DNA of 64,000 bases from Vicinamibacterales bacterium (GTDB taxonomy: Bacteria > Acidobacteriota > Vicinamibacteria > Vicinamibacterales > UBA8438): NCBI GenBank assembly GCA_965263195.1, contig OZ253664.1, positions 2,037,045-2,101,044 of the forward strand. The letters are read 5' to 3'. Position 1 is the first letter of the stretch, and each line of letters opens with the position of its first letter. Below are positions 12,575 to 53,021 of this stretch, piece by piece. Made by a program: the position numbers and the translations under genes. The notes beneath the pieces were generated by a model. That model had not been told where the DNA came from and did not search any database. It saw only the letters and a program-made list of their open reading frames with translations.

Positions 12575-12576
12575 CG

Positions 12577-15588: not shown

Positions 15589-15699
15589 CTGCTTCCCTCC
15601 TCGGTGGGCACGAGGCGCGTGAGTGCCTCGAACCAGACGCGAAAATCAATGCCGGTCTTCACCACTTGTTCGCCTCTGGTGCGCCATGCCGCTCCGCCC

Positions 15700-17920: not shown

Positions 17921-18130
17921 ATCTATAGGAAGTTCAAAAACTCATTTCCTGATGCGCTCAGGCCCTGTTGGGCATAGTCGGCCGGCGCGGTGAAGGGTGC
18001 AGCGATTCCCGCGCTCTGATGCCTCCGGGGACGATCTTCGGCGGCTGCGAAGCCTATGCGCAAGTGTGCGGGACGAGCCACCCGGCGGGGGGGCGTCAAA
18101 TCTCTGGAGGCTGACGGATTCGGAGACCGC
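17921..18130 (+). repeat. non-coding repeat, copy B (module 1 then module 2)
   Basis: ATCTATAGGAAGTTCAAAAACTCATTTCC..GCCGG (17921-17985) and GGGGGCGTCAAATCTCTGGAGGCTGACGG..GGAGACCGC (18088-18130). Preceded by (AATCT)3 at 17910-17924. Confidence 0.6.
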
Positions 18131-20129: not shown

Positions 20130-21299
20130 TCACGACATCTTCTGCCCGCTCAAGGACTTACGCTGACTTTGCCGCTGAAACTTCGGCTTAGGGCCGGTGA
20201 GAGCCGGTGGCACGCGACGAGTCCAGCGCATCCGGTGGCCGTCACGGTCCACGAGTGGGTCGATGCCAAAACTTCTTTGCAGCGACGTGGCCCACCGCAG
20301 TCGCCTCGGTTTTTCCAGCCGTTCCTGCCCAAGAAGTGCGAACACGGCATCGTGTGTCTGGCACTTCACGCGTGGCGCGAGGAGACCGAAATACCGGATG
20401 GCGTGGCGGTAGCGGTCAGGCACGTGATCGGCGAGCGTGGCCAAGAACTCGGCCGGGCTGTACGTCGTCTCGACGGTGCGTTTGGTGCGCGTGTCCTTCG
20501 TCACAAATCGGATTTCTTGACGGGTGATCGTCCGGAACCGGTGCTGCGCGATGGGCGGCCGGCGGGCGTAACGGCCCGCATAGCCGAGGAACTGCTTCTT
20601 GCTTCGGAATCGCTTGACGTCGATGTTCCACCACCGTTCGTACTGGGTGGTGAGCAACCGCAGCAACGCGCTGCGAAACATGTCGGTATCAAGGACGCCG
20701 GCCCGCGCGGCCTCCCGCAGCAACGTGATGACGGCGTAGCGCCACATCGGCATTAGCGCCTTCCGGTCCAGCCGGGCTCGGGCACACCATTTCGTGCCGT
20801 CCTCGCGGAGACCGCCCTCGGACACGAGGATGTGCAGGTGGCAGTTGAAGTTCAGGTGCCGGCCGAAGGTGTGCGGGATGACCACGATCATCAGCCGGAT
20901 GCCGTACTTCTGTCGTGCCCATTGCTGCAGCACCTGCGCACCCAAGACGGGAAGATCGTGCAGGAGATGGCGGTTCCGCTGGAACAGCGGCCACAGCACA
21001 TCCGGCATGGTGAGGCAGACGTGGGCGTACGGGACGTCGGGCAGCTCTCGCCACTGGTCGCGCTGCCACGCTCGGGTCGCCTGATACCCGCAACTGGGAC
21101 AGGCCCGTGATTTACAGGTGTGATACACGACACGCTCTTCGGTGTTAGACGCGAAGATCTCCGCGCCGAGGGCCTCGGTGCCGCAGTCGACCACCTTGGC
21201 AAACGCCTCCCACACCGCGGGACGAGTGTCGTCACGGTCCCACTCGTCCCGATGCATAGCGAGGACGTCTCTGAGCGGTCGAGCGCGAGCCGGGGTCAT
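20130..21299 (-). CDS. IS91-family HUH/Y2 rolling-circle transposase-like protein
   Basis: ATG at 21299 overlaps the ParB-like stop (ATGA). Zinc-binding YHTCKSRACPSCG, HUH motif NCHLHILV and Y2 region LGYAGRYARRPPIAQHRF. Confidence 0.8.
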   Translation of the reverse strand: MTPARARPLRDVLAMHRDEWDRDDTRPAVWEAFAKVVDCGTEALGAEIFASNTEERVVYHTCKSRACPSCGYQATRAWQRDQWRELPDVPYAHVCLTMPDVLWPLFQRNRHLLHDLPVLGAQVLQQWARQKYGIRLMIVVIPHTFGRHLNFNCHLHILVSEGGLREDGTKWCARARLDRKALMPMWRYAVITLLREAARAGVLDTDMFRSALLRLLTTQYERWWNIDVKRFRSKKQFLGYAGRYARRPPIAQHRFRTITRQEIRFVTKDTRTKRTVETTYSPAEFLATLADHVPDRYRHAIRYFGLLAPRVKCQTHDAVFALLGQERLEKPRRLRWATSLQRSFGIDPLVDRDGHRMRWTRRVPPALTGPKPKFQRQSQRKSLSGQKMS

Positions 21300-22243
21300 C
21301 GGGTGTGCTTCTCCTGCAGCTCCTCGTAGCACATCTGCGTCACCACCACGGCTCGCCCTGGAACGTCCACGACCGCCACGGTGATGTCAGCCGGGTCGTA
21401 CATCGGGAGTCCACCGAGGACGGTGACGGCCACGCCGTCGGGTTGAGCCGGAGCACCGGTGTCAGCGTGCGCCCTGATCAATCGGCCGACCGTCTTCTTG
21501 ATGCCCCCCTGGTGCAAATGTGTCCAGAGCGCATCACGCTGCCCCTTGGGGTTCAGCGTGCGCCACTGCGAGGCCCGATGGATGCTGACCTCCCCCCGTA
21601 GGAGTCGCTCCCGCACCTCCGGAATCACGGTGGCCAGGAGCTGCTTGACCTTGGTCACGTTGCCGGTCGAGACGCCCGCCTCCGCGGCGATGTCCTTCCG
21701 CACGTCGCGGTGCTCGTGGTTCGTCAACTTTGACGAGGCCCGCGTGTCGCCAGTCGACAGTGCCGGTCGACGCCGTTCCCTGAGGTACGACTCCAGGCCC
21801 AGGGCCAACACGATCCGGCCGTAATCGTTCAGCCCCTGGCAGCGCCGGTGCCGTTGGATGACAACCTGGAGCGCCTCCTCGTCGGTCACGTCGTACTCGA
21901 AGCAGGGAAGCGTCGGCTGCTGGCGTTCGATCGCCACATGCCACCGCGCGTGTCCGTCGAGAATCGTGCCATCCGTGGTCGTCAATAACGGCTCGCGGAT
22001 CGACCCTGGCTGCTGCGCCACTCGTCGAACTCGTGCCGCGGCGATTGGAGCACACAGGTCGTGATAGGCCGGATGTGGCCGCAACGCCGCGGTGGGGCGA
22101 TACACCAATCGATCCCGATGCGGACCATCCTGGCTCTCGTGTGCGTTGGGAATGGCGTCCAGTCGGGTGCCACCGCCGCTCAGGTGCGCATCGCCCGGTA
22201 GGTCGGAGGAATCGCCAGGACCGGGCGTAGAGCGCGTAGTCAT
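21296..22243 (-). CDS. ParB/sulfiredoxin-like nuclease-domain protein
   Basis: ATG at 22243 overlaps the AlpA stop (ATGA). ..LRPHPAY..REPLLTTTDGTILDGHARWHVAIE.. is ParB N-terminal-domain-like; an HTH-like C-terminal part follows. Confidence 0.7.
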   Translation of the reverse strand: MTTRSTPGPGDSSDLPGDAHLSGGGTRLDAIPNAHESQDGPHRDRLVYRPTAALRPHPAYHDLCAPIAAARVRRVAQQPGSIREPLLTTTDGTILDGHARWHVAIERQQPTLPCFEYDVTDEEALQVVIQRHRRCQGLNDYGRIVLALGLESYLRERRRPALSTGDTRASSKLTNHEHRDVRKDIAAEAGVSTGNVTKVKQLLATVIPEVRERLLRGEVSIHRASQWRTLNPKGQRDALWTHLHQGGIKKTVGRLIRAHADTGAPAQPDGVAVTVLGGLPMYDPADITVAVVDVPGRAVVVTQMCYEELQEKHTR

Positions 22244-36852: not shown

Positions 36853-39297
36853 ATGCCCATAAGATTCGTTGGTACGTTCGTCCTTGCGCTGGCGCTGACA
36901 TTCGCCGGCGCCCTGCAGCCTGCAAGCGCACAACCCACAACCCGCGGCGGCGCTCCGGCCGCAGGCGAGCCGTCCCGGGCGCTGCTCGACCGCTATTGTG
37001 TCACCTGTCACAACGAACGGCTCAAGACCGCCGGTCTGGCGCTCGACGCCATCGACCTCGCGCAGGTCGCGACCCACGCCGAGGTGCTCGAGAAGGTCGT
37101 CCGGAAGCTGCGCAGCGGACAGATGCCCCCCGAGGGGCGGCCGCGTCCCGACGCCGCCGATGTCGACACGTTCGTCACCGCACTCGAAACCACCCTGGAC
37201 CGCGAGAACGAGACCACGCCCAACCCGGGCCGCGTCGCCTCCCGGCGGCTGAACCGTGTCGAGTACGTCAACGCCATCAAGGACCTGCTGGCGCTCGAAG
37301 TCAACGGCGCCGAGCTGCTGCCGAGCGACATGGCCGGCTTCGGGTTCGACAACAATGCGGACGTGCTGTCGATGACGCCGTCCCTGATGACGCGCTACAT
37401 CGCCGCCGCCACGAAGGTCAGCCGGGCGGCCATCGGCAGTCCCGACAACCGGCCCGTGATGCAGGTGTACTCGCTCGGCTTCGAGGAGCGGGACATCCGC
37501 GCCAACGAGGACATGCCGTTCTCGACCATCGGCGGGTTGTCGGAGCGGCACATGTTCCCGCTTGACGGGGAATACGTGTTCGCCGTCCGGCTGAAGCGGA
37601 ACGCCACCGTCGAGACCATCGAGGGCATCGAGGAGGACGGGCACGAGATCGAGCTGCGCGTCGACCACGAGCTGATCCAGCGCTGGCCGATCGGCGGGCA
37701 GTTCTCCGGCCCCGATCCGGGCGTGCTGATCGCCGTGCCCGAGGACGATGTCGAGGGTCAGCGACTCCACGCGTACCGCATGACGGCCGACGACGAGCTC
37801 GAAATCCGCGTCCCGATCGAAGCCGGCCAGCGGCTCGTCTCCGTCGCGTTCACCGACTCGGCGCCGTCGCCGCACGGCCTGCGGGGCGAGCCGGGCATCG
37901 CCAAGCTGTTTATTTCCGGTCCGTTCAACGGCACGGTGCCGGACGACACGCCGAGCCGGCAACAGATCTTCACCTGCCGTCCGGCCAGCGCTGCGGCGGA
38001 CGCCGAGCAGGAGGCGTGCGCGCGGGAGATCATCAGCGCCCTCGCGCGGCGGGCCTACCGGCGGCCGGTCACCGACATCGACGTCGACCCGCTCGTCGCG
38101 GTCTACCGCGACGGGCGTGCCGAGCGCGATTTCGAATTCGGCATCGAGTTGGCTCTCGAAGCGTTGCTCTCGATGCCGGAATTCCTGATGCGCATCTATC
38201 AGGAACCGGTCGACCTGACGCCCGGCGAGCCGTACAAGTTAAGCGACCTGGAGCTGGCCTCGCGGCTGTCGTTCTTCCTCTGGCGGTCGATCCCGGACGA
38301 CGAGCTGATCGACCTCGCCGCCGCGGGGCGGCTGAGCGATGCCGAGGTGCTCCCCGCACAGATCCGGCGCATGCTGGCGGACGACCGCGCCACGCGGTTC
38401 ATGAACGACTTCGTGGGCCAGTGGCTGCAGATTCGCAACATCAACGAGCAGGCGCCCGACGGTGCGCTGTTTGCGCAGTTCAACGACACGCTGCGCAAGG
38501 CCATGGTGCAGGAGACGCAGCTGTTCTTCGAGAGCCAGTTGCGCGAAGACCGGCCGATTCAGGAGCTGCTGACCGCGAACTACAGCTTCCTGAACGAGCA
38601 GCTCGCCCGCCACTACGGGGTGGATGACATCTACGGCAGCCGCTTCCGCCGCGTCGAGTTGGCGGACGATCGGCGGCATGGCCTGCTCGGTCAGGCGAGC
38701 CTGCTGACGGTCACCTCCTATGCGAACCGGACTTCCGTGGTGCTGCGGGGCAAGTGGGTGCTGGAGACGCTGCTCGGTGCGCCGCCGCCGCCGCCGCCGC
38801 CGAACGTGCCGCCGCTGGAGGAAGACGAGGCCGGCGCCGCGCCGACGTCACTGCGCGAGAAGATGGAGCAGCACCGGCGGAACCCGGTGTGCGCCACCTG
38901 CCACACGGAGATGGACCAGCTCGGCTTCGCCATGGAGCACTTCAACGCCATCGGCCAGTGGCGCGAGACGGACCGCGGCGCGGAGATCGATGCGACGATC
39001 GAGTGGGCGGGACATACAATCGACAGCCCCCGGTCGTTCCGCGAGGCGCTGGTCGCCAAGGGGGACGAGTTCGAGCGGACCGTGGTCGAGAAGCTGCTGA
39101 CCTACGCGCTCGGCCGCGGTGTCGACTATTACGACGCGCCGACCATACGCCGGATCGTGCGCGACGTCGCCGACGCGGACTACCGCTGGTCGGCGATCAT
39201 CGAAGGGGTCGTCAGGAGCATGCCGTTCCAGATGCGGCGGGTGGCCGATCCGGCCGACATGCCGGCGACGACAGCGGCGGCCGACGCCGGACTCTGA
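36853..39297 (+). CDS. DUF1592/DUF1588/DUF1587/DUF1585/DUF1595-type heme-binding protein (PSCyt-like)
   Basis: ATG at 36853. Signal peptide, N-terminal CVTCHNERLKTAGLALD, and later NPVCATCHTEMDQLGFAMEHFNAIGQWR. Confidence 0.85.
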   Translation: MPIRFVGTFVLALALTFAGALQPASAQPTTRGGAPAAGEPSRALLDRYCVTCHNERLKTAGLALDAIDLAQVATHAEVLEKVVRKLRSGQMPPEGRPRPDAADVDTFVTALETTLDRENETTPNPGRVASRRLNRVEYVNAIKDLLALEVNGAELLPSDMAGFGFDNNADVLSMTPSLMTRYIAAATKVSRAAIGSPDNRPVMQVYSLGFEERDIRANEDMPFSTIGGLSERHMFPLDGEYVFAVRLKRNATVETIEGIEEDGHEIELRVDHELIQRWPIGGQFSGPDPGVLIAVPEDDVEGQRLHAYRMTADDELEIRVPIEAGQRLVSVAFTDSAPSPHGLRGEPGIAKLFISGPFNGTVPDDTPSRQQIFTCRPASAAADAEQEACAREIISALARRAYRRPVTDIDVDPLVAVYRDGRAERDFEFGIELALEALLSMPEFLMRIYQEPVDLTPGEPYKLSDLELASRLSFFLWRSIPDDELIDLAAAGRLSDAEVLPAQIRRMLADDRATRFMNDFVGQWLQIRNINEQAPDGALFAQFNDTLRKAMVQETQLFFESQLREDRPIQELLTANYSFLNEQLARHYGVDDIYGSRFRRVELADDRRHGLLGQASLLTVTSYANRTSVVLRGKWVLETLLGAPPPPPPPNVPPLEEDEAGAAPTSLREKMEQHRRNPVCATCHTEMDQLGFAMEHFNAIGQWRETDRGAEIDATIEWAGHTIDSPRSFREALVAKGDEFERTVVEKLLTYALGRGVDYYDAPTIRRIVRDVADADYRWSAIIEGVVRSMPFQMRRVADPADMPATTAAADAGL

Positions 39298-39338
39298 ATC
39301 CGGCGCTGAACACGACGCAGACGAAAGAGGACTCACCC

Positions 39339-40685
39339 ATGGTCATCACGAAGATGCAACTGCCACGACGCACCGTGTTGCGGGGCCTTGGTGTCAGCAT
39401 GGCGCTGCCGCTGCTCGACAGCATGGTGCCCGCGCTCACCGCACTCAGCAAGACGGCCGCCGCGCCGGTCCGCCGGTTTGGCGTCTTCTACGTGCCGAAC
39501 GGGATGTCGATGCCCTACTGGTCGCCGAAGGCGGAGGGCCCGCTCCCGGAGCTGCCGCCGACGTTGCAGTCGCTGGCCGGATTCGAGGATCGCGTGCTGA
39601 TGTGCGGCGGCCTGGCGGACGAGGCGGCCAACCTGGTAAAGGGCGGCGGCGACCACGCGCGCTCGGCCGGGACGTTCCTGACCGGCGTGCCGTTCAAGAT
39701 CACGGCGGGCGCCGATGTCTACGCCGCCGTGTCAATGGACCAGATGGCGGCGCGGGTGCTGGCGCAGGAGACGCAGCTCGCCTCCATCGAGCTGGGCATC
39801 GAGTCGAACGCCATGCTCGGATCGTGTGACGGCGGCGCAAGTTGCGCGTACACCAACACCATCGCGTGGCGCACGCCTACCACGCCGCTGCCGATCGAGA
39901 ACGACCCGCGCGCCGTCTTCGAGCGGCTGTTCGGGACGAGCGGCAGCACGGATCCGAAGGCGCGGCTCGCGCGCCTCCGCCGCGACCGCACCATCCTGGA
40001 CCTCGTCGGCAACGAGCTCGACGACCTCGTGCGGGTCATCGGCCCGGGCGACCGGGTGAAGCTGGACGAGTACCTGGAGTCGGTCCGCGACATCGAGCGC
40101 CGCATCGAGATGGCGGAGCGCCAGAATACGCGCGAGCTTCCCGTGGTCGACCAGCCGGTCGGTGTGCCGAGCGACTACGCGGAGCACGCCACGCTGATGA
40201 TGGATCTGCTCGCGCTCGCCTACCAGACCGACCTGACGCGGATCAGCACGTTCATGCTGGCGCGGGAGGTCTCCGGACACGCCTATCCGGAAATCGGCGT
40301 ATCCGACTCGCACCACCCGCTGTCGCACCACCAGGACGAGCCGGCAAAGCTGGAGCGGCTGCACAAGATCAACGAGTACCACTTCCGGCAGTTCGGCCAC
40401 CTGGTCAAGACGCTGTCCGAGACGCCGGAAGGCGACGGGACGATGCTCGACTCCTCCATGTTCCTGTACGGCACCGGCATCAGCGACAGCAACACGCACT
40501 TCCACGACGACCTGCCGATTGCGCTGATCGCCGGGAAGAAGACCGGGATCGACGGCGGCCGGTACGTGAGATACGCCGAGGGGACGCCCCTGGCGAACCT
40601 GCACCTGTCGATTCTGGAAAGTCTGGGGACGCCGGAAGAGGCATTCGGCGACAGCACCGGCAAGCTGAAGCGGCTCAGCTTGTAG
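39339..40685 (+). CDS. DUF1552 domain protein with Tat-type signal
   Basis: ATG at 39339. MVITKMQLPRRTVLRGLGVSMALPLLDSM... The usual partner of DUF1592 proteins. Confidence 0.85.
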   Translation: MVITKMQLPRRTVLRGLGVSMALPLLDSMVPALTALSKTAAAPVRRFGVFYVPNGMSMPYWSPKAEGPLPELPPTLQSLAGFEDRVLMCGGLADEAANLVKGGGDHARSAGTFLTGVPFKITAGADVYAAVSMDQMAARVLAQETQLASIELGIESNAMLGSCDGGASCAYTNTIAWRTPTTPLPIENDPRAVFERLFGTSGSTDPKARLARLRRDRTILDLVGNELDDLVRVIGPGDRVKLDEYLESVRDIERRIEMAERQNTRELPVVDQPVGVPSDYAEHATLMMDLLALAYQTDLTRISTFMLAREVSGHAYPEIGVSDSHHPLSHHQDEPAKLERLHKINEYHFRQFGHLVKTLSETPEGDGTMLDSSMFLYGTGISDSNTHFHDDLPIALIAGKKTGIDGGRYVRYAEGTPLANLHLSILESLGTPEEAFGDSTGKLKRLSL

Positions 40686-42626: not shown

Positions 42627-43046
42627 GTGACGGTCGTCGCGGACGCCTCGGTGCTCGTGTCGGCTCTGGTCGACTCGGGTCGCGAAGGGCAATGGTCCGA
42701 ATCGGTGGTCGCGGTCGGCCAGCTTGCCGGCCCCGAGTTGGTCCTGGCGAAAACCAGCAACATTCTGCGCCGGCTGGAAATCGCGGGCGAAATCTCAGAT
42801 TTCGAGGCGACGAGCTCGCACAGAAACCTTCTGCAGCTCAACCTGGAGCTATTCCCCTTTGCGCCGTTTGCCGAGCGCATCTGGGCGCTGCGCGGCAACC
42901 TGACCAGCTACGACGCCTGGTATGTGGCGCTGGCCGAAGAACTTGATTGTCCGCTGGCGACCCTGGATCGCAGGCTCAGCCGCGCCCACGGCCCCAGGTG
43001 CACGATACGCGTACCGCCGATACCTCAGACCGAAGAGGACGCTTGA
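42627..43046 (+). CDS. vapC: PIN-domain toxin, VapC family
   Basis: GTG at 42627. VTVVADASVLVSALVD.. (first acidic residue), ..SYDAWYVALAEELDCPLATLDRRL.. is typical of the VapC C-terminal part. Confidence 0.8.
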   Translation: MTVVADASVLVSALVDSGREGQWSESVVAVGQLAGPELVLAKTSNILRRLEIAGEISDFEATSSHRNLLQLNLELFPFAPFAERIWALRGNLTSYDAWYVALAEELDCPLATLDRRLSRAHGPRCTIRVPPIPQTEEDA

Positions 43047-43208
43047 ACCGCTCATATTGTCGCGGTCATGCTGGCTGGCTATATTTGCTAACACCGATGC
43101 CACGAAGCAAACGACGCGATGCCGCGTCTGCCACGGTGCAGGAATCGGAATAATGCCGGATCCGAACAGCCGATCTCGGTCGGACTATCTTGGTGGAGAA
43201 ATGACAGA

Positions 43209-43439
43209 ATGCGCTTCTATGCTTACGAGAACTGGCGCGCCCACGGCCACCGGATGACGATTCATCGCGGCGACTGTCCGTTCTGCAACGACGGTCGTGG
43301 TCAAGCCGGTGGAACCACGGCCGACAACGGCGAGTGGCACCAACTGCCTGAATCGACCGACGCCGAAACCGCCACGGCCGCCGCGCGGTCGCTTCGTGCA
43401 GCGCCGACGATCCGCTTGTGCCGCCGTTGTTTACGGTAG
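43209..43439 (+). CDS. small CxxC..CxxC (zinc-ribbon-like) protein
   Basis: ATG at 43209 within ORF 43119..43439. MRFYAYENWRAHGHRMTIHRGDCPFCNDGRG..WHQLPESTDAETA..IRLCRRCL. Confidence 0.4.
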   Translation: MRFYAYENWRAHGHRMTIHRGDCPFCNDGRGQAGGTTADNGEWHQLPESTDAETATAAARSLRAAPTIRLCRRCLR

Positions 43440-43506: not shown

Positions 43507-44004
43507 TCACCAGCCACGGGCGACTCCGCACGTCGAAACTCTTGAAGGCCGTGAAGACAACGGAATCTCGGCGCTACCGCCGCCACCGCGAATCCAATTC
43601 GACAATTCGATGATGGTCCGGTCACGTTCCGGCCCTTCTTTACGCACGGCACACTCCCAGACAACCATCACGCGCCATCCCGCCTCACGCAACTGACGAA
43701 GCTTGCTAGCATCACGCTCCACGTTGCGTGCAAACTTTTCCATCCACCAAGCCCGGTTTGACACCGGCGTCGTTGCATAGTGGCATCCGCCGTGACGATG
43801 CCAGAAGCAGCCGTTGATGAAGATGACCGCGCCGTACCGCGACAGCTTCAGGTCGGGACTGCCCGGAAGGGTCCGATCCGACGTTCGAAACCTGAAGCCG
43901 ATCCGGTGCAGCGACTGCCGAACCACCATCTCGGGCCGCGTATTGAGACGCCGCACCGCCGCCATCATGCGTGACCGCGTTTCACGATCGACAGTATCGG
44001 TCAT
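43507..44004 (-). CDS. vsr: very short patch repair endonuclease
   Basis: ATG at 44004 overlaps the upstream stop (ATGA at 44001-44004). ..TRPEMVVRQSLHRIGFRFR..PGSPDLKLSRYGAVIFINGCFWHRH.. Confidence 0.9.
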   Translation of the reverse strand: MTDTVDRETRSRMMAAVRRLNTRPEMVVRQSLHRIGFRFRTSDRTLPGSPDLKLSRYGAVIFINGCFWHRHGGCHYATTPVSNRAWWMEKFARNVERDASKLRQLREAGWRVMVVWECAVRKEGPERDRTIIELSNWIRGGGGSAEIPLSSRPSRVSTCGVARGW

Positions 44005-45980
44005 GCGCCGCTGACCACCACGATTCCGTCGCCGTCTGGCCGGAGCTCAAGCACATCGCCGTTTCCGAGTTGCAGCGCAGCTATCACAGATTCCAGTCCG
44101 GCTACGCTTCGCTCGTAAACGACGATCCGACCGATGTCCGCGCCGGTCGGGTCTTGAACTTGCCATTGTCCAGTCAAACCGATCACATCAGAAGCACTGA
44201 ACCTTCCAGACAACCGCGTGCGTGACGAAATCGGTATCCGCAAGCATACGTCCGACAACATATCCGCTTCTTCGACATCATCGCAATCACTCACGTCGTC
44301 CGTGGAAATCCGCGCGTGCAGTCCGTCAAGATCGATGTCCTCCGGTCGCGGTACAAACTTGTAGATACCCTCCTTGTACCCGACACCTGGTCGCGTATGT
44401 ACAAGAAATGGACTGTACGCGATCGTCGCTCGGGCATTTTCGCTGGTGAGCCCTTCACGAACCAGCCGTGTGTAGATGACATTGCTTGAAACAACTCGAC
44501 CATTCTCCACACAAATTTCGAGCAGCGCAAGATCGCGACCGCCGATGGAACACCAAGCAGGCCCCGGCCTTCTTCGAACTTCGCCGTCCTGGACATCGAA
44601 TAAGCCCGATCGCTCCGCTATTCCTTCCAACACAGGAACCGGTAGATCTGTAACCGTTCCATAAGGTATCGCCGACCGTACCCTGGAGTTTCTAGGAATG
44701 GACCGAACAAGATCAAGAATTTCCGCTCGACTCGTCGCGGAGAACACCTTGCATAGGTTCGTGAGGATATTGTTCCCCGTGATGCGAAAATTCTGGGGTG
44801 GCAAGGGTGGCCGCTTCCACAAATATCGACGACCACCATCAAGAAATTCCAGCCGGCTGCTGGCGTCAACGATCCTGCGCAGCATCTTCTCACCACAATC
44901 GATACGTCTTGCAATACTCCCTATTTCGGCGTAAAGCTCGCCGTTAACCTCCTCTCTCAGGCGGGCGATCCACTCAACCGTGGCTTCATCAGCATGATCG
45001 ACGACAATCTGACCGATACCACCTATTGCCCGCACCTTGAAGGGGAAGTCCAAACCGAAGATATCCGCACAGTGTTCTAACGTCTTGAAGTTGTTCTCAG
45101 GATCCGGATACGACTCGTAGCCGAACCGGGACACGATATCCGGAACGGATGCCGGCAAGATGCTCCTCGCTTCCACCAGTGCCGGCTCCCATCCTACGAA
45201 TCGCTGATTCGACGCTTTCTTCCGCAGCCCACGGTCGGCGGCGTCCAAGACCTGTCGGACTCGTTCCCTTGTGACCGCGTAGCGGAAGCCGTATTCAACG
45301 CCGTCGTCTGCGATTTCCTGTAGAGTCCGTCGCGGAGCACCTGCGACTCCATGGTACGCAACAAAACAAAGCGCCTGGTTCTCTTTCGGGGCAAGGAGTC
45401 GCGCCAACGTGTCCTGCAACTCATCCTTGAACGTCCCGTAGACTCTCGTCGTATCCTCCGGGGACCCTGCGGCCAAGTCATCAGCCGTCACGCTGCCCGG
45501 AGGCCGAAGACCGAGGGTTAACCCCCACTTCTGCAGCCCGTTCTCGATAACCTCAAGAACAGTTGGGTCCACGCCGGGCATCGCGAGAAGCTGATCGGGT
45601 GTCATATAGACCAGGGTGTCCACGCGATCGACATCGCTTCTGCGAAGGATTTCCATAGCGCTGACGAATTCCTCAACCTGACGGACCGGTCCCGCGTCGG
45701 CAATCTGCAGAGCTTCGTTGACGTCCGCATCTCGCATGCCGAGACGCAAACCCATCTTGCTCAACGTCCGCTCAACATCCCGCAGACTTGTTCGGCCCAT
45801 GTTCCGGATGGCCAATAACTGTTCTGGAGTCTGCCGGACGAGGTCGCCGACGCGAGTAATCTCCTGCTGCCTCAGACAGTTGTGGGACCGAACGGTGAGG
45901 TCAAGATCGTCGATATGCATCGATAGCACGTCCGCGACAGCGCTTTCTTCCGTTGCCGTTCGATCGGGTGTGTCGCTCAC
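44001..45980 (-). CDS. large uncharacterised protein with RNAP alpha-subunit CTD-like HhH module(s) and a sigma-70 region-4-like HTH
   Basis: IDDLDLTVRSHNCLRQQEITRVGDLVRQTPEQLLAIRNMGRTSLRDVERTLSKMGLRLGMRD aligns position by position with the E. coli alpha-CTD core ([52 protein letters not shown]). There is a second degenerate HhH (VYMTPDQLLAMPGVDPTVLEVIENGLQKWGLTLGLR), then RRTLQEIADDG..AVTRERVRQVLDAADRGLRK. About 400 C-terminal residues match no family I recognise. Start options: GTG 45980 (GAGG 8 nt upstream), TTG 46025, ATG 45920. Confidence 0.7.
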   Translation of the reverse strand: MSDTPDRTATEESAVADVLSMHIDDLDLTVRSHNCLRQQEITRVGDLVRQTPEQLLAIRNMGRTSLRDVERTLSKMGLRLGMRDADVNEALQIADAGPVRQVEEFVSAMEILRRSDVDRVDTLVYMTPDQLLAMPGVDPTVLEVIENGLQKWGLTLGLRPPGSVTADDLAAGSPEDTTRVYGTFKDELQDTLARLLAPKENQALCFVAYHGVAGAPRRTLQEIADDGVEYGFRYAVTRERVRQVLDAADRGLRKKASNQRFVGWEPALVEARSILPASVPDIVSRFGYESYPDPENNFKTLEHCADIFGLDFPFKVRAIGGIGQIVVDHADEATVEWIARLREEVNGELYAEIGSIARRIDCGEKMLRRIVDASSRLEFLDGGRRYLWKRPPLPPQNFRITGNNILTNLCKVFSATSRAEILDLVRSIPRNSRVRSAIPYGTVTDLPVPVLEGIAERSGLFDVQDGEVRRRPGPAWCSIGGRDLALLEICVENGRVVSSNVIYTRLVREGLTSENARATIAYSPFLVHTRPGVGYKEGIYKFVPRPEDIDLDGLHARISTDDVSDCDDVEEADMLSDVCLRIPISSRTRLSGRFSASDVIGLTGQWQVQDPTGADIGRIVVYERSVAGLESVIAALQLGNGDVLELRPDGDGIVVVSGA

Positions 45981-45990
45981 TTCGGTGACC

Positions 45991-47355
45991 TCACAGCACT
46001 GACACCGCCCCCATGCCGACGACAAAGCCGAGCTGCGGCGGTACGGCAGAACCGATCATGTTGGCGTAGTCACTCCGTGTCACCGTACCCGTCCTCGGCA
46101 GCCAGTTGAAGTCCTCTCCGAATCCTTGGAGCTTGGCTCCCTCATGTGGCGTGAGAGACCTAGGCTCCAACGGGTGCGTGAATCGACCTCTACCGGGGGA
46201 AAGAAACCCCGTCGTGATGGTAGGAGCCACCTGGTTCGGCCTCATGCGGCCGTACACCGAAAGGTAGTTGTGGTTCTTCAATCGGTGGCAATCGGGACGC
46301 TCGTCGTCCGGTAGATCGTATTCTTGACGTTCCGTGAGAAAACGTACCCGCCTCTGGTTTTCGTCCGACAACTGAGACGGTCTATCGAACGTCGTGCCAG
46401 GGTCCACATCTGCCAACAAGGCCAGCGCCTCCGACGCGGTCGGAGCGGAAATCTGCAGCCGAACAAAATCCGATATCGTAACGATCCGCTCGGACTTTCC
46501 GGCAATCAGGAAATGGCGGCGGCGCTCTTGCGGTGTTCCATAGTCGGACGCCGTCAACGTGAATCCGTTGCCGTCGATCCGATAACCAGCGAACTCAAGC
46601 AGCGACAACGCGCGGCCCACGACATTCTGCTTCGATCGTTTCACTGCGGGAACGTTCTCTACAACTATCACGCTGGCCCCGAGAGCAACCCCCGCAACCA
46701 CAGCGTCAAGGTAAAGTTCGTTCCGGTAGTCGATGCGACGCGTCCGATTGTTAAGGTTGGAATTGCCTTCGCATGGTGGGCCGGCAAGCAGGATGTCGAC
46801 ATTGCCCGCGAGCACTGCCAGTTCGCGGCTCAGATAAACCGATTCCATATCCGGAAGCGATTTTTCTCCCTTTGTACGCAACCGGTAATCGACGAGATTC
46901 TCCACGTTCTCCCGAACTGTCCTAAGTGGTCGCACGTTTCTGGCGTATACATCCAGCGCCGGCCGCGAAAGATCCGCCGCCAGTGCGAACACCGGCCGCA
47001 CGCCGACTGCCTCGATTGCCTGCTTGACGCCTATCGACAATCCACCACATCCGCAGAACAGGTCGACTACGTTGACACGGGCCCTTCCGATGCCACGATA
47101 GAGACTTGGACGCCCACCTTTGAGCTGTGACAAATTCCAGAACCGCGCCAACCTAGCACAATCCGCCTTATCATCTTCCGGCGTGGGGGTCGTTGCACCG
47201 CGAAAGGACATCCACGACCGCGAAGTGAACCGACCGGCGGTAGCATCGCGAACGAGGGATCGATCTTCAAGATCGTAGCCGACCGTCACCGTACCGGCAT
47301 CGTCCCGGTCGTCAACTTCGGGTGGCTCGCATCCCGAAGGTGCTATCTGCACCAT
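45991..47355 (-). CDS. dcm: DNA (cytosine-5)-methyltransferase
   Basis: Motif I VVDLFCGCGGLS, IV LLAGPPCEGNS, VI VVENVPA, VIII QERRRHFLIAG, LTPHEGAKLQGFGEDF, X IGSAVPPQL. ATG at 47355; GTG at 47388 is also possible. Confidence 0.9.
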   Translation of the reverse strand: MVQIAPSGCEPPEVDDRDDAGTVTVGYDLEDRSLVRDATAGRFTSRSWMSFRGATTPTPEDDKADCARLARFWNLSQLKGGRPSLYRGIGRARVNVVDLFCGCGGLSIGVKQAIEAVGVRPVFALAADLSRPALDVYARNVRPLRTVRENVENLVDYRLRTKGEKSLPDMESVYLSRELAVLAGNVDILLAGPPCEGNSNLNNRTRRIDYRNELYLDAVVAGVALGASVIVVENVPAVKRSKQNVVGRALSLLEFAGYRIDGNGFTLTASDYGTPQERRRHFLIAGKSERIVTISDFVRLQISAPTASEALALLADVDPGTTFDRPSQLSDENQRRVRFLTERQEYDLPDDERPDCHRLKNHNYLSVYGRMRPNQVAPTITTGFLSPGRGRFTHPLEPRSLTPHEGAKLQGFGEDFNWLPRTGTVTRSDYANMIGSAVPPQLGFVVGMGAVSVL

Positions 47356-48101
47356 GATTCCCGGTCTTCCCAAAGTCGCGTGACCCACCGATACGCCTTG
47401 ACTTCATCAAATAATTCGAACGCGATTGTCGCTTGACGGCGCCGTATTTCCTTGGCCAAGTCCCTGAATCCGGCCGGGATGGTCGGATCATTCCCCACTC
47501 CTCGCTGCAGCTTGAGGTCGCGGACCACTTTGACAAAAGCACGCGCCATCACCGGCGAACTTCCGAAGTTGACGTCGATGACGTGGGAATCCCAGAGGTC
47601 GACGTCGGCGTACTCGATGCCGTCATAGGGGTCAACTGCGCCTTCGACATACATCATGCTCGCGCAAATCCATAGCTTCGCGAACATGCCTTTCTTGAGC
47701 TCTTCAAGGCCGTAGTAGATCCCCCTGCCCGGTCCGGACTCGGACAGCTTCTGATGTCCATTCCCATAGCGCCAGTCCACGATATCGGCACCGAAACCAT
47801 CATCCATGAACGTTAACCATCGCCAGAAATCCGCATCCCCGGCCATTACCGGCGGCAACCGGAGGGTGCCGTGGACTATCGGTGCGCATTGGCTGTCGAA
47901 TTCCGCGACCGGTATTTTGTCGTCTCGTGCGGAGGTTGCGAGGTCACAACATTGGTTCAGACAGTCTCTGGCTGTCGACTCCTGGAAGTCAGCGCCCGAC
48001 TTGCGCAGTACGTCACGCTGGTTGAGTCGTGCTTCGCCGCTCTCCTTGCGCAATATGTACACCGCTCTGGCGGTTTCAAGTCCCAACCCAGGATAAGCCA
48101 A
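47343..48101 (-). CDS. uncharacterised 252-aa protein (operon member)
   Basis: TTG start at 48101 preceded by a strong GAGGAGG SD (48105-48111) that overlaps the stop of the upstream gene. No motif recognised (..DADFWRWLTFMDDGFGADIVDWRYG..). Confidence 0.6.
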   Translation of the reverse strand: MAYPGLGLETARAVYILRKESGEARLNQRDVLRKSGADFQESTARDCLNQCCDLATSARDDKIPVAEFDSQCAPIVHGTLRLPPVMAGDADFWRWLTFMDDGFGADIVDWRYGNGHQKLSESGPGRGIYYGLEELKKGMFAKLWICASMMYVEGAVDPYDGIEYADVDLWDSHVIDVNFGSSPVMARAFVKVVRDLKLQRGVGNDPTIPAGFRDLAKEIRRRQATIAFELFDEVKAYRWVTRLWEDRESWCR

Positions 48102-48110
48102 TACACCTCC

Positions 48111-48595
48111 TCACAACTTCATGGTCGCGAAGACCTTGTCCGCCCCTGCGAGCTTCCAGCACCTCGGCATCAGTTTGGCGCGCCCCCCAGGGCCACGTCC
48201 ATACTCCTGCTTCGCTGCCTCCAGGCTCATTCCGAATTCATTCTCGATCAAATCCGCGACGACACTGGTCAAGCTGTTCGGTTCCTCGCTGCCTCCGTCC
48301 GTGCCCAGAACATGAGACAGCACGTCGGCGTATACGTGCGCCGCAATGTTCCGAGCGATGTGCTCGGACGCCGCACTGGCCTGCCTGGAACTCAAGGCGC
48401 GAAACTTGTCCTCGAAATCCTTGTTCAGCAAGACTTCAAACAACTCGTTCGGGGGCCGATCAGGATCCTCACCGCGCCAGTGAACATAGTAGACCGTCCG
48501 ACGGTCCAGTCCTTGCTTCACCATCTCGTCGGGTTCGACGAACCTAATGGGAACGTCGAGCCCGCGATTCGGGACACGTATCTTGAACGTCTTGG
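48111..48595 (-). pseudogene. C-terminal half of IS-interrupted operon gene X
   Basis: TKTFKIRVPNRGLDVPIRFVEPDEM... continues in frame from 50391 once the IS plus one target copy (1789 nt) is removed. Confidence 0.7.
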
Positions 48596-50390
48596 TAGCT
48601 AGTGCCCGCCAGAAAACCCCCTTGCGGGCGGAAATCTGCGACAAATCCGGCCCACCTCGGGCGTGATTCCCACCACGGATCCTGCCACGACGGCGGTACT
48701 TGGCGGCCGGCGGGGAGCGACCGGCAAAGAATCAGTGCGGAGGTCCGGCTGCCAAGGATGGGGAAGCCCTCCCATCTTTCGACGGGTCGGAGCACGGCAT
48801 GCTTTAGGGGAAGCGGCCGGTCAGGCGGCGAGTCGTCGTCGTTTGCGCTCGCGCTTTTGCAGGAGCAACCCGATGCGATGCAGGTTGGCGGCCAGTACCG
48901 ACAGTGCGACGGTGCGCGCGAAGCCGTCGGCGCCATGGCTGCGGACACGGTCGAGCCCCCGGTGTTCCAGCCCATTGATGGCCGACTCGATTGCCGGATG
49001 CGCACGCCGCGCGGCCGCGAAGGGTTCCTCCGCCTCCCGTTCGCGGTCGGCTCTGGAAAGATACCCCTTTCTCGGCAGCGCGTTGAGGTCGAGCAGCGCG
49101 TCGAGCTTGATTCGGTTGTCAGGGCTGTGAAAGCCCCGGTCGAAGCTGCACGCCCGCAGTTCGGGATACCGCGCCTGGGCTTCGCTCACCATCGGCGCCG
49201 CCACGTCGACGTCCTCGCCCTCCCACAGGATCTTGTGGTGCAGGATGAATTGATGCTGGTCTTCGATGAGAGCTACAGGAACCCCGAGTTCTACCGGCGT
49301 GCCTGCCTTGCCCTTGGAAACCCAGCGAGTATGCTCCTCGAAGACCGAGAACACCTTCTCCTCGTGAGCAATCGCCTCGCCCCGCAGGAGTCGGCGCTCG
49401 ACCTGGCCGAGCTGGCGCTGGGCATGCGCGATAAAGCCCTGGATTGATTGGCAGGTGGTTTCCTCGACGCCCTTGTCCCGCAACTCGTCGAGGGTCTCCA
49501 TGGTCCGAGCGACCAGTGCACGGCAGCGCGCCAAGTACGCCTCCACCCGCTCCGGACGGCGCTTGGCCCGCCGCGTCGAACGCACCTGGTTGAACAGTTT
49601 CCTGACCTCCTTGGACAGATGCCGCCACTGACGCCATCCCCCCACCGCGTGTCTCCCAGCCGCCCGCCCGGTCTCCCGCAGCAGGCAGCGCAGCGCGTCC
49701 CACAACAGGCTGACATCCGTCGGATAGTGCACGTCCGTCTCGACCACGAACGAGTCACACCGCCCGCGCAATCGCTCGCCAGGCTTTTTTTTAGCGACCG
49801 TATGGCCGCTCTCCACCACCAACCGCCCGACTTCTGACAGCAGCTCCGGCGTCAACAGACACACATTGTCGAGCACCGTTTGGTACTCGTAATACGTCTT
49901 GTCGGCGAAATCGCCGTGGCCCAGGAACGCGCGCACCGTCTCGTGATGGTTCGCGAGGTCGTGAAGGCGGTCGAAGTCGCAACCCAGACCCTGCTTCAAC
50001 ACCCCCAGCACCAAAATCCGCCAGAGCGCCATCCCCGGACGCCCGACCTCCCGGTCGGTCTCCGGCAGGACATGCTCGTCGAGCAGCGCAAACAACCGCG
50101 CGCGCAACTCCTCGTCAGACCAAATGTGCTGAAGCCCCTTCAACACCGCCGGGATGTCGTCCCGCGACTTGGGGTCGATCCAAATCTTCTCCACCGGAAC
50201 CTGACCAAACTCGAACTGCCGTCTGTGAACTTCTCTCATGACGTCGACGTCTCGAAGATTCCCCCGAAATGGGCCGATAGTGGAAATTCCACCCACAAAA
50301 CTACGACATCTCAACGTTCTTCGCCACTTGAAATCCGAAATGCGACTCGTAGAATCAACCTATTACGGGTTTTCTGGCGGACACTAGCTA
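48596..50390. mobile_element. IS element (IS5/IS1182-superfamily-like) with terminal inverted repeats
   Basis: TAGCTAGTGCCCGCCAGAAAACCC (48596-48619) versus GGGTTTTCTGGCGGACACTAGCTA (50367-50390) gives 23/24 inverted identity. The palindromic TAGCTA makes the target duplication ambiguous (2, 4 or 6 bp). The core IS is about 48601-50385. Confidence 0.8.
48821..50239 (-). CDS. DDE transposase of the IS element
   Basis: ATG at 50239 (the track start at 50314 is TTG). ..CDSFVVETDVHYPTDVSLLWDA.., ..CSFDRGFHS.., ..ESAINGLEHRGLDRVRSHG... IS family not resolved. Confidence 0.8.
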   Translation of the reverse strand: MREVHRRQFEFGQVPVEKIWIDPKSRDDIPAVLKGLQHIWSDEELRARLFALLDEHVLPETDREVGRPGMALWRILVLGVLKQGLGCDFDRLHDLANHHETVRAFLGHGDFADKTYYEYQTVLDNVCLLTPELLSEVGRLVVESGHTVAKKKPGERLRGRCDSFVVETDVHYPTDVSLLWDALRCLLRETGRAAGRHAVGGWRQWRHLSKEVRKLFNQVRSTRRAKRRPERVEAYLARCRALVARTMETLDELRDKGVEETTCQSIQGFIAHAQRQLGQVERRLLRGEAIAHEEKVFSVFEEHTRWVSKGKAGTPVELGVPVALIEDQHQFILHHKILWEGEDVDVAAPMVSEAQARYPELRACSFDRGFHSPDNRIKLDALLDLNALPRKGYLSRADREREAEEPFAAARRAHPAIESAINGLEHRGLDRVRSHGADGFARTVALSVLAANLHRIGLLLQKRERKRRRLAA

Positions 50391-50850
50391 GCGAGGCTCC
50401 CGTCGGAATCGCTATCCCCCATTGATTCACGATGTCCGACCGTGGTGTTGCAACGACTACAAGATCAAATAGCGTGGATCTGGAGAATCTGTGCAGCACC
50501 TCATTCAGCGACCAGACGTCTTCGGGCACTTCGCGCATCGGCCATGAGTTCACTGTTTCGAACTTGCAAAGACGACGGTCCCGGCAAATCACTGACACGA
50601 CGATGTCGTCCGCCTGCACTCCAGTGTCAGCCGTAAGCCTCGCCGTGTCGATGTCGAAGAACAACTCCGGCGTCAATCCGTCCCAATCCTGTTCGCCCTC
50701 AAGGTAGCGAGTCACATTGTTGGCTCGATCCGTCGGATCCTCGCTCATGCTCAGCCGGAGCCCCACGTTTTCCAGGCTCGGGTCGGATGTAGGAAACGGC
50801 CTGGTCACCCTATGTTCGACCGCCCTCCAAGTTAGTGGCCGTGCGATCAT
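50391..50850 (-). pseudogene. N-terminal half of IS-interrupted operon gene X
   Basis: ATG at 50850 overlaps the GHKL gene stop (ATGA at 50847-50850). MIARPLTWRAVEH...NQWGIAIPTGASLA, then the IS sequence. Confidence 0.7.
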
Positions 50851-52733
50851 TGTGCTCGGTCCTCGCATCGGGCCACTTCGATATCCCATCGAGTAGTCCA
50901 CGCTGGGTGAACCTCTGCGCGAGCTTCCGCATCCACCCGTTCTCCTCGTCCAAGTGTCGACATGAAAGTCGTCCGGCCGTCTGGGCCGCTGCCCCTGTAC
51001 TCCCCGGTGGCCGTTCTCACGTGCGGCGCAAGCACATCCATCGGCCTCATGTTATCGTCGGCCAATACCTTGAGAGACAGCGTGACTTCGACGTCAACGG
51101 ATTCAACCGGCGCGTGAGTCGACAAGCCGATACGGAACACCACAAATGCGTCTTGTGCGTTACCGTTCTGCGTCCGCCCAGAATCGATCGTTTCTATCGT
51201 GAACGCGCGCGAACGGGACTCCGGCTTGACGGTAGTCCGGCTTCCGGTACGACGGGTGAACAGATTTCGTAACGTTCTGCGCAGGAACTCTGCTGCGTTG
51301 GTCCGTTCAACCGCCGGCGCATCCATCTGCCGCGTCTGGAAATCACGGGTCAGGTTGCGCAGCCGCTGTTTCGTGAGGCGAATGAAGTCACGACCCCAGT
51401 CGTACTTGCCGCGCAACCGATCGCCGTTCTCGACCCAGTCGTCATGTGTCGGTGGCTCGGAAAATACGAACGCCTGCATCGTGTCCGGGTCAACATCGGG
51501 CGAAAAGACACCGACGACTGGTGGTCTGTCTTCGTGCGCGAACTCGCTCGAATACTTGATGACCAGTCCGTCTCGAACGAACGCAATGCGATTCGTGAGA
51601 GCGACGTGGTCATCGCTCTCACTTGATGCGTCGATCGCCTTCAGCACGAGTCGTCCGGCCTTACGCGGTCCACCCGCCGGATTGACTCTGACGTCCTTCA
51701 CGTCGTACTTGTCGCCCACGGTGTTGGCGTTGATCTGCTTGTGGCAGTCGATGAACGGACTCAACTCGCGCCGGGATCGCGGATTGCGTCCCGGCATCGA
51801 TTCACCTTCATCAAGGAACTCGAAATTCACCCGCCGACCGCTATGATGACGTGCCATCGTCGGCCACCACCACGTCTCACAGCTCTCCACGACCTCGTTC
51901 ATCGTAGCGGCGAACGCAGGAATCACGACGGTTGTCCCCGTTTCCTCGTTTGACCGTTCCGGTAGACCGAGTGTTCGAACCCACGCGTGGGCGTCGTCGT
52001 CGACTAGGGGCTTCCGCGGGCTTCGTTCCTCACCACTGTCGTTTCCGTAGTACGCCTGTCCCGCATAGTCGATGTCTCCGACCGAGTGCTGCGGGAGGAA
52101 CGCGGTGGCCATCGCACGACAGCGGGCGCCGGTAGTGTTGTGGTCTGGACGGAACGTGGAGTAGTAGGCGACGGTTCGAATCTCCGAACTCAACGCGAAC
52201 GCCATCTTGCCGTACCCATACGATCCGAGCGTACGTATGGCGTCGGTGTCTCCCTCCTCTTCGTCTTCCCACTTGAGACTGCCACCGATCGAGAGAACCA
52301 GGTTGAAGAAACGATCCTGCTTGGACCGGCGCCGATTCCAGTGACCACCCAACCCGTTGGCATTGAAATCGGATATTAAAAGGACCGGCAGCGGAACGTC
52401 GGGCTTCCCGATGTCGTCCAGCACGTGGTTGCCTCTTCCGAACCAGTTGTGTGCGGTTCGAAAGGCTCGCCTCCGGTCGGCAAGAACGCGAAGATCCAGC
52501 GCATCGACGAAGAGCTTCTTGCCGTTTCCAATCAGCACGTCCCGTTCGAATCGGATCCGGACGGAGTCATCGCTATCCCGACGACGTTCGTCCAGACTGT
52601 TCTGAACGGCTTCGCGAACGAGCAGATCAGTTGGACCCAGATTCGACCCGCGTAGCGGATCGGCCATGTTGCTGGCCGGCAAGATGCCGGCTCCGTCCTT
52701 CAGGAAGGCCCAGGATTGCGCCGGGAAAGTCAT
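50847..52733 (-). CDS. GHKL (Bergerat-fold, MORC/HATPase_c_3-like) ATPase
   Basis: ATG at 52733 (the track start at 52742 is TTG). N-box LVREAVQNSLDE, G1-like LLISDFNANGLGG, G2-like LGSYGYGKMAF. Large uncharacterised C-terminal region. Confidence 0.75.
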   Translation of the reverse strand: MTFPAQSWAFLKDGAGILPASNMADPLRGSNLGPTDLLVREAVQNSLDERRRDSDDSVRIRFERDVLIGNGKKLFVDALDLRVLADRRRAFRTAHNWFGRGNHVLDDIGKPDVPLPVLLISDFNANGLGGHWNRRRSKQDRFFNLVLSIGGSLKWEDEEEGDTDAIRTLGSYGYGKMAFALSSEIRTVAYYSTFRPDHNTTGARCRAMATAFLPQHSVGDIDYAGQAYYGNDSGEERSPRKPLVDDDAHAWVRTLGLPERSNEETGTTVVIPAFAATMNEVVESCETWWWPTMARHHSGRRVNFEFLDEGESMPGRNPRSRRELSPFIDCHKQINANTVGDKYDVKDVRVNPAGGPRKAGRLVLKAIDASSESDDHVALTNRIAFVRDGLVIKYSSEFAHEDRPPVVGVFSPDVDPDTMQAFVFSEPPTHDDWVENGDRLRGKYDWGRDFIRLTKQRLRNLTRDFQTRQMDAPAVERTNAAEFLRRTLRNLFTRRTGSRTTVKPESRSRAFTIETIDSGRTQNGNAQDAFVVFRIGLSTHAPVESVDVEVTLSLKVLADDNMRPMDVLAPHVRTATGEYRGSGPDGRTTFMSTLGRGERVDAEARAEVHPAWTTRWDIEVARCEDRAQ

Positions 52734-52944: not shown

Positions 52945-53021
52945 TGGTGCCGATGCAGGGACTTGAACCCCGGACCTAGCGGATATGAGCCGCTCGCTCT
53001 AACCAGCTGAGCTACACCGGC
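52945..53021 (-). tRNA. tRNA with CAT anticodon (elongator Met, or Ile2 if lysidine-modified)
   Basis: The reverse complement reads GCCGGTGTAGCTCAGCTGGTTAGAGCGAGCGGCTCATATCCGCTAGGTCCGGGGTTCAAGTCCCTGCATCGGCACCA. It has a 7-bp acceptor stem, D and T arms, a CTCATAT anticodon loop and an encoded CCA. The paired G1-C72 argues against an initiator. Confidence 0.9.

Follow-up and report, generated by a model that had tools for sequence, protein, structure and literature searches.

An insertion-disrupted GHKL ATPase-DUF6339-cytosine methyltransferase operon in a Vicinamibacterales bacterium: a candidate methylation-linked surveillance module without Z1 and DUF4420 proteins

A 64,000-nucleotide stretch of the genome of a Vicinamibacterales bacterium (contig OZ253664.1 of assembly GCA_965263195.1; hereafter, the window) carries, on its minus strand, a run of six coupled genes that encode, in order, a GHKL-type ATPase, a protein here called X, a DUF6339 protein, a cytosine DNA methyltransferase (Dcm), a protein resembling both the RNA polymerase alpha subunit's C-terminal domain (alphaCTD) and sigma factors (hereafter, the sigma-like protein), and a Vsr endonuclease. 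We read this locus, at about even confidence, as an insertion sequence (IS)-inactivated copy of a mobile restriction-modification (R-M)-like surveillance module that is linked to 5-methylcytosine (m5C), that would belong to the paraMORC2 or "Z1-DUF4420-MORC-like-DUF6339" family, and whose effector step may be non-nucleolytic. The family itself has already been predicted computationally; new, as far as we found, are a clade that carries neither Z1 nor DUF4420 proteins and the alphaCTD-sigma protein.

Results

A conserved trio of coupled genes

Relatives of the GHKL ATPase were collected by a scan of species-representative genomes, and the best 80 of 368 confirmed relatives were kept; unless stated otherwise, counts refer to these loci of about 20 kb (designated L001 and so on), whose neighbouring genes were found by iterative profile searches (jackhmmer) over all open reading frames (ORFs) and whose phylum placement was taken from record titles. 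X was present in 74 and DUF6339 in 72 of the 80 loci, in every case immediately behind the GHKL gene and with their order constant; truncated contigs account for the exceptions. This trio of GHKL, X and DUF6339 is invariant and translationally coupled, and gene coordinates of related loci show stop/start overlaps there as well. Within 10 kb of the trio, Dcm was found in 65 and Vsr in 44 of the 80 loci. The complete gene order of the operon is found again in L001 and L002 (both Vicinamibacterales), L003 (Alphaproteobacteria) and L005, at 38-69% amino-acid identity and across at least two phyla, while L004, L006 and L007 have five of the six genes. An earlier sequence-only reading of the window had proposed a methylation-linked module, and the constancy of the trio, together with the recurrence of the six-gene order, supports one that is conserved and horizontally spread. 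At E <= 1e-30, the GHKL family comprises 2,080 clusters at 50% identity.

In the window, the tight coupling of six minus-strand genes described by the sequence-only reading was reproduced in full, including the gene coordinates (Table 1), the ATGA start/stop overlaps at 50847-50850 (GHKL/X) and 44001-44004 (sigma-like/vsr), the Shine-Dalgarno sequence of the DUF6339 gene (a GGAGG directly after the X stop), the dcm start and the start that follows it. For the sigma-like gene, the longest ORF begins at 46025 (674 aa).

Two architectures and a clade without Z1 and DUF4420

In 55 of the 80 loci, a Z1-domain protein (PF10593; PADLOC MzaC, 1e-93) and a DUF4420 PD-(D/E)XK protein (matching PADLOC MzaD) are encoded directly upstream of the GHKL gene. 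Neither is present in the window or in L001-L013, L015, L016, L019, L028, L053 and L061, and tblastn with 16 Z1 and DUF4420 proteins of related loci found no such gene in the 64-kb window. In a neighbour-joining tree of GHKL proteins, the Z1-less loci with an adjacent Dcm form one clade apart from the Z1 loci; this clade spans Acidobacteriota, Proteobacteria, Chloroflexota and Acidimicrobiia, and DUF6339 always precedes Dcm in it. In the clade of the window, the Z1 helicase-like protein and the DUF4420 nuclease were either lost or never present. The absence of Z1 and AIPR proteins from the operon, as the sequence-only reading had it, agrees with the lack of any Pfam or PADLOC match to either; by contrast, its proposal of a distinct effector/sensor set was not supported, the operon being instead a variant within a predicted family, most members of which are accompanied by Z1 and a PD-(D/E)XK nuclease.

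An operon of this composition could be the methylation and recognition half of a Z1/DUF4420 system, much as a Type I M2S complex exists without HsdR, in which case trio and Dcm would act as an ATP-regulated or targeted epigenetic methyltransferase or would be served by Z1 and DUF4420 in trans. This explanation, which we judge unlikely, draws on the lack of a nuclease or helicase in the clade, on the fusion or coupling of DUF6339 to Dcm, on the small number of defence genes nearby, and on L075 (an Ilumatobacter metagenome-assembled genome [MAG], 1936-15280), where a full minus-strand Z1-DUF4420-GHKL-X-DUF6339 operon lies back-to-back with a plus-strand, Z1-less GHKL-X-DUF6339-Dcm-Vsr operon and a single Dcm/Vsr pair is present for two trios. 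However, the clade is monophyletic, extends over several phyla and keeps all ATPase motifs invariant with no Z1 or DUF4420 within the 20-kb loci; neither gene occurs in the 64-kb window, and the recurrent IS disruption of genes other than dcm suggests a cost.

Some relatives are carried by plasmids. In L083 (Rhizobium sp. SRDI969 plasmid pSRDI969_2, 526041-532157), a Z1 gene precedes three "hypothetical protein" genes, the first of which matches the window GHKL protein by tblastn while the other two resemble X and DUF6339 in length; DUF4420 is not among the genes listed there, and the cluster is flanked by genes for AAA ATPases, a DEAD/DEAH helicase and an EcoRII N-terminal domain protein. Weak relatives were also seen on haloarchaeal and Synechococcus plasmids, and among 2.9 million viral contigs a single distant relative was found. 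In the RefSeq plasmid record inspected, the trio is annotated only as "hypothetical protein". A Z1-less GHKL-X-DUF6339-Dcm-Vsr operon is also carried by a cultured type strain, Arenimonas composti TR7-09 = DSM 18010 (L010; NZ_AUFF01000001.1, 467411-489093), and complete genomes with a clade operon include OZ242003.1, OZ243958.1, OZ250177.1 and OZ251549.1.

The GHKL ATPase and its two putative adaptors

The N-box (E41, N45, D48), G1 (D122, G127, G130) and G2 (G170, G173, G175, K176) motifs, which had been picked out from the letters alone, are invariant in 63 sequences, as are E426 and H430 of an ExxxH motif, beside which D431 is conserved. The AlphaFold model of the protein (predicted local distance difference test score [pLDDT] 89.3) supports this assignment; in Foldseek searches, it matched the ATPase and transducer modules of TRAP1/Hsp90 (TRAP1, 1.6e-8), topoisomerase VI-B (2.2e-7) and SMCHD1 (5e-6). 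The modelled domain order is a Bergerat ATPase, a transducer with the ExxxH motif, a helical linker and, over the last 110 residues, a C-terminal beta-sandwich, with no nuclease fold in the model; no match to the protein was found in Pfam, NCBIfam or, by sequence or profile, the PDB. The model identifies the product of the first gene as a GHKL-plus-transducer ATPase, and its motifs fit the paraMORC2 family.

The sequence-only reading could name no family for three of the partners; this stands for X, which has no match in Pfam, PADLOC, NCBIfam, PHROGs or the PDB, but not for the 252-aa protein, which is a member of Pfam DUF6339 (PF19866, 1.4e-7). Because no residue of X is invariant across 39 family members, X is probably a non-enzymatic adaptor. 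The DUF6339 protein is modelled by AlphaFold as all-alpha (pLDDT 91; predicted template-modelling score 0.89), and only W93, A87, R111, W144 and R213 are conserved throughout its family. Foldseek returned no structural relative of DUF6339 (best PDB E 1.9; best BFVD E 1.4). The alignments of X and DUF6339 contain no conserved catalytic residues, and since X has neither a library match nor an invariant residue and DUF6339 has few conserved ones, both look like adaptors rather than enzymes. Searching the PDB with profiles of GHKL, X, DUF6339 and the sigma-like protein's C-terminal region gave nothing significant; a PHROGs search gave no matches; and hhalign comparisons among all components and with the Z1 and DUF4420 alignments, which covered a degenerate nuclease and internal duplication, all gave probabilities below 1%.

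In Streptomyces (L021:12739-14601, 620 aa, and eight other Streptomyces loci), one polypeptide combines an N-terminal DUF6339 with a C5 methyltransferase, which speaks for the two working together physically. In these loci (L021:12739-15774 and the eight others), a second, separate C5 methyltransferase gene follows and then Vsr.

Dcm, Vsr and the question of mismatch repair

Dcm is a C5 cytosine DNA methyltransferase (PF00145, 2.6e-32) whose motifs can be read in the translation; its best PADLOC model is DruM2 (5e-79), and it has an N-terminal extension of about 100 aa that is common to its clade. Its identity is 38-69% with the neighbouring Dcm in clade loci and 23-30% with other Dcm genes. 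Vsr scores 134 bits on TIGR00632 (cutoff 97.85) and also matches PF03852 and the PADLOC Vsr model (2.5e-34). By these profile matches, both proteins are bona fide members of their families, as unambiguous as they had appeared at first reading.

The pair resembles the Dcm-Vsr/MutL arrangement of E. coli in that a GHKL ATPase accompanies Dcm and Vsr. One could thus picture a very-short-patch (VSP) repair machine in which the GHKL protein takes the part of MutL for Vsr, with X and DUF6339 as accessories, so that a mobile Dcm would bring its own limit on C-to-T mutagenesis. The translational coupling of vsr in the window, the presence of Vsr within 10 kb of the trio in over half of the loci and the many relatives in Actinobacteria, which generally lack MutS and MutL, would suit such a machine. 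So would the functional interaction of MutL, itself a GHKL ATPase, with Vsr (as cited in PMC2292703). We nevertheless consider this account quite improbable. It is weakened by the missing Vsr in about half of the clade loci (36 of the 80 loci overall have none nearby, while Dcm is present in 65), most relatives are tied to Z1 and a PD-(D/E)XK nuclease, as in anti-phage Mza, and a repair function should not suffer repeated knockout by IS elements. Unlike the E. coli arrangement, moreover, the window ATPase has no MutL match or MutL C-terminal domain, and Vsr is dispensable in half of the clade.

The sigma-like protein and the search for a nuclease

The sigma-like protein has one Pfam alphaCTD match (aa 26-89; PF03118, 3.3e-22) and possibly a second copy, read by eye; profile matches were obtained to the RpoA C-terminal domain (3.5e-21) and to SigA regions 3-4 (4e-11), and two of nine homologues match Sigma70_r4. 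Its C-terminal region of about 400 aa has no PDB match by profile and no detectable relative; the alignments contain one invariant acidic residue (nine sequences) or two (seven-sequence C-terminal alignment) and no recognisable nuclease motif. Full-length homologues occur in L001, L003, L004, L006, L007 and L008, an N-terminally shorter one in L005 and an IS-disrupted one in L002; the protein is confined to the subclade nearest the window, and half of the clade lacks it. The L008 homologue (14851-17283, minus strand) has about four alphaCTD repeats and lies on the opposite strand, and L005 has two sigma-like paralogues without alphaCTD (16610-18070 and 20322-21671).

Apart from Vsr, no nuclease was detected in the six proteins by Pfam, PADLOC or NCBIfam, and the GHKL and DUF6339 models contain no nuclease fold; this agrees with the sequence-only reading, which saw no PD-(D/E)xK, HNH or PLD nuclease motif. 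Dcm-vsr pairs commonly accompany a restriction enzyme, and the operon could in principle be a Type II-like R-M system with an endonuclease of unrecognised fold. Its possible places would be X, the last 400 aa of the sigma-like protein and the ExxxH(D) site of the GHKL ATPase, where conserved E426, H430 and D431 could bind metal. We regard such a system as very improbable given that X has no invariant residue in 39 members, that half of the clade does without the sigma-like protein, whose C-terminal region has neither a recognisable nuclease motif nor a PDB match, and that the GHKL model contains only ATPase, transducer and beta-sandwich domains.

Insertion sequences in the operon

Gene X is split by an IS, as the sequence-only reading had proposed, and the element belongs to the ISNCY family. 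Its transposase scores 442 bits on NF033593 (cutoff 325), its ends are 29-nt inverted repeats that are 90% complementary, and the target duplication is the 4-bp AGCT. Deletion of 1789 nt (48597-50385) gives an in-frame X of 316 aa. L081, a metagenome contig that is 99% identical to the window, has the empty site, joining window position 50385 to 48602, and an intact 316-aa X gene is called in it; the insertion is thus recent and polymorphic. Because X is split, the operon is, to judge from its reading frames, off in the window genome.

Independent insertions, inside or between genes of the operon, were also found in three further loci of this clade: an IS1380-family element in the DUF6339 gene of L005 (13284-14699), an IS256-family element in L061 (12758-14062) and an ISL3-family element in L002 (17419-18828). 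With that of the window, four IS families are represented. In all four IS-hit loci, dcm is intact. Repeated independent insertions fit a costly activity of the operon. Several MAG loci also have split or truncated GHKL ORFs, which may represent frameshifts or assembly errors.

Genomic surroundings

The operon lies in an AT-richer island with a guanine-plus-cytosine content of 57-63%, compared with about 70% in the flanks, close to a tRNA gene (Table 1), in agreement with the first description of the window. An att repeat or integrase was looked for at the island ends and none was found. Among the clade loci, only L081 has a tRNA within about 300 nt, and four others have tRNAs 6-10 kb away; tRNA adjacency was therefore rejected as a family trait, L081, a 99% identical copy, alone sharing it.

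Table 1. Features of the operon region in window coordinates
Feature	Position	Strand	Remarks
vsr	43507-44004	-	165 aa; ATG overlaps stop of upstream gene
alphaCTD/sigma-like gene	44001-45980	-	~659 aa; GTG 10 nt after dcm stop
dcm	45991-47355	-	~454 aa; ATG 10 nt upstream of DUF6339 gene stop
DUF6339 gene	47343-48101	-	252 aa; TTG start, GGAGG 6-7 nt upstream
Gene X, 3' part	48111-48596	-	codons 156-316; frame rejoined after IS removal
ISNCY-family IS with one AGCT target duplication copy	48597-50385	-	1789 nt
IS transposase ORF	48821-50314		matches NF033593, ISNCY family
Gene X, 5' part	50386-50850	-	codons 1-155; ATG overlaps GHKL stop (ATGA)
GHKL-type ATPase gene	50847-52733	-	628 aa counted from ATG
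tRNA-Met (CAU)	52945-53021	-	~210 nt upstream of operon

Convergent with vsr is a plus-strand region (42627-43439) that is a probable toxin-antitoxin pair, in which a PIN/VapC-like gene (42627-43046), named via the Pfam match of the 99% identical L081 gene, is adjoined by a small ORF (43119-43439). Genes that flank the operon in the window (38754-40685, plus strand) and in L081 encode HXXSHH/DUF1552 and PSD/PSCyt-domain proteins, FabH, QueA and RuvABC. The operon's closest relatives belong to Vicinamibacterales MAGs.

Discussion

Relation to known and predicted systems

The sequence-only reading took the operon for an undescribed system; a conserved, methylase-linked module it is, but its trio corresponds to the additional genes of the "Type I" variant of Miller et al., carries the paraMORC2 ExxxH motif and weakly matches PDC-M33. 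Miller et al. (2022, Nat Commun) described a putative defence system with a core of Z1, DUF4420 and a C5 methyltransferase, of which Z1 and DUF4420 are defined as common to all variants (PMC9523054); in Type I, this core is joined by a MORC-like protein of 704 aa, DUF6339 and an unannotated protein of 310 aa (PMC9523054, supplementary table). The GHKL protein, X, DUF6339 and C5 methyltransferase of the window belong to the same families, the same link to a Vsr repair endonuclease is present, and the 55 related loci with Z1 and DUF4420 have exactly the Type I layout. The window and its whole clade differ in that the core Z1 and DUF4420 are missing; in the subclade of the window, an alphaCTD plus sigma 3/4 protein is added, and in the window, Dcm is also translationally coupled to DUF6339. 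Type I is itself only predicted. In the papers available to us, we found no description of the clade without Z1 and DUF4420 or of its alphaCTD-sigma protein.

The ATPase can be traced to a still earlier prediction, as Iyer et al. (2008) predicted that GHKL ATPases of the paraMORC type, in their association with cytosine methylases and Vsr, are R-M components, with ExxxH as the hallmark motif of paraMORC2 (PMC2292703). The window protein resembles paraMORC2 in its ATP-binding motifs, its C-terminal S5/transducer domain and its ExxxH motif (E426/H430), a likeness drawn by description only, and Janibacter sp. appears in the paraMORC2 species list while Janibacter sp. HTCC2649 (L045) carries a trio-family GHKL member. 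By contrast, the helicase and nuclease partners that the published description leads one to expect are absent in the window.

In PADLOC, the GHKL protein matches PDC-M33A (5.7e-16) with similar lengths (631 aa for the protein and 627 for the model), and DUF6339 matches PDC-M33C (0.005 in the window, 1e-6 in L011). However, these matches are partial or weak, with only the N-terminal 210 of the 627 positions of model A aligned; X is unmatched, and no PDC-M33B-named model matched any of the six proteins in the PADLOC scan. Literature searches on PDC-M33 and DUF6339 found no papers.

To our knowledge, Mza is the only validated system in which a GHKL/MORC-type ATPase is linked to a methylase. In PMC9523054, mzaABCDE is described as validated and mzaA as a sigma factor, and Mza (Gao et al. 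2020, as cited there) is given as a sigma-like MzaA, a MutL/MORC-like GHKL protein, Z1, DUF4420 and AIPR; Miller et al. see the likeness to mzaABCDE in the AIPR-containing Type II of their system and not in Type I (PMC9523054). The window operon shares with Mza a GHKL gene associated with Dcm and Vsr and possibly a sigma-like component, and relatives of the window carry MzaC-like and MzaD-like genes. By contrast, the PADLOC Mza models match nothing among the six window proteins: the GHKL protein is matched by PDC-M33A alone and not by MzaB, and the sigma-like protein has a sigma-70 region 3/4-like segment yet no MzaA match. Z1, DUF4420 and AIPR are all absent from the six proteins by Pfam and PADLOC, with X and DUF6339 in the place of AIPR.

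The operon may work in a manner like that of BREX/Pgl, where a methyltransferase marks self and an ATPase with accessory proteins blocks unmarked DNA with no evident nuclease, and an 85-residue alphaCTD segment of the sigma-like protein resembles PglW residues 780-864 (1.6e-8; 24 bits against a cutoff of 990). The window encodes no PglX, PglZ, BrxC or BrxL homologues, however, and its mark would be m5C rather than N6-methyladenine; membership in BREX/Pgl was rejected, as only the PglW alphaCTD-like segment matches. Two other assignments were rejected as well: Druantia type II, because only Dcm matches (DruM) and there are no DruE, DruF or DruG matches; and MADS, because no mad model matches among the six proteins (composition per preprint 10.1101/2023.03.30.534895). 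As for Type II R-M, no cognate restriction endonuclease domain was found in Pfam, PADLOC or NCBIfam or in the two models (GHKL and DUF6339).

A proposed mechanism and the points that weigh against it

Dcm, Vsr and the ATPase are the only enzymes that can be recognised in the operon. In the m5C-linked surveillance module that we favour, Dcm would mark host DNA, and Vsr would repair the T:G mismatches that arise from m5C deamination and so limit the mutational cost of m5C. A dimerising GHKL ATPase, together with X and DUF6339 as adaptors, would make up an ATP-driven DNA-surveillance complex, which could be tethered to the methyltransferase through DUF6339 and would act on DNA without the mark. 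The alphaCTD plus sigma 3/4 protein may bind DNA, RNA polymerase or both and serve as a regulator or as the output subunit; in that case, the sigma-like MzaA of Mza would offer a parallel. Because no nuclease is found in the clade, interference would probably be non-nucleolytic (e.g., a BREX-like block or MORC-like clamping) or would borrow Vsr or a host nuclease.

Several observations weigh against this interpretation. The defence role of the trio family is so far only predicted. An effector nuclease was found in the clade by none of the Pfam, PADLOC, NCBIfam, PDB profile or Foldseek searches. Clustering of clade neighbours gave no further conserved neighbour, about half of the clade loci lack Vsr, and about 4 of 93 clade-locus neighbours match PADLOC models, a weak defence-island enrichment. 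Since dcm accounts for only about 15-19% of the operon, the fact that all four IS insertions missed it does not reach statistical significance. Finally, no window protein is detectably homologous to Mza, and the likeness to that system is one of general GHKL fold and of Dcm/Vsr association.

Conclusions

The clade represented by the window strips a predicted system down to an ATPase, two adaptors and a methylase, with no helicase or nuclease, and thereby isolates its least understood core in a testable form. Questions that can now be put to the test are whether the trio senses unmethylated DNA, whether it is toxic without Dcm and whether interference can proceed without cutting, and material is at hand in the IS-free sequence of L081 (10001-17450), in the cultured carrier Arenimonas composti DSM 18010 and in a large family. 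A bolder reading, which we hold to be rather improbable, is that GHKL-X-DUF6339-Dcm is a complete nuclease-independent immunity or epigenetic system, in which a MORC/SMCHD1-like, ATP-driven clamp would silence or block DNA without m5C, leaving it uncut, and the sigma-like protein would couple the clamp to RNA polymerase or promoters in the subclade of the window. Eukaryotic MORC silencing proteins were predicted in 2008 to descend from bacterial ATPases of the GHKL/MORC type that are linked to cytosine methylases; if the clamp were real, the operon would represent a bacterial counterpart of eukaryotic MORC-type methylation-linked silencing.

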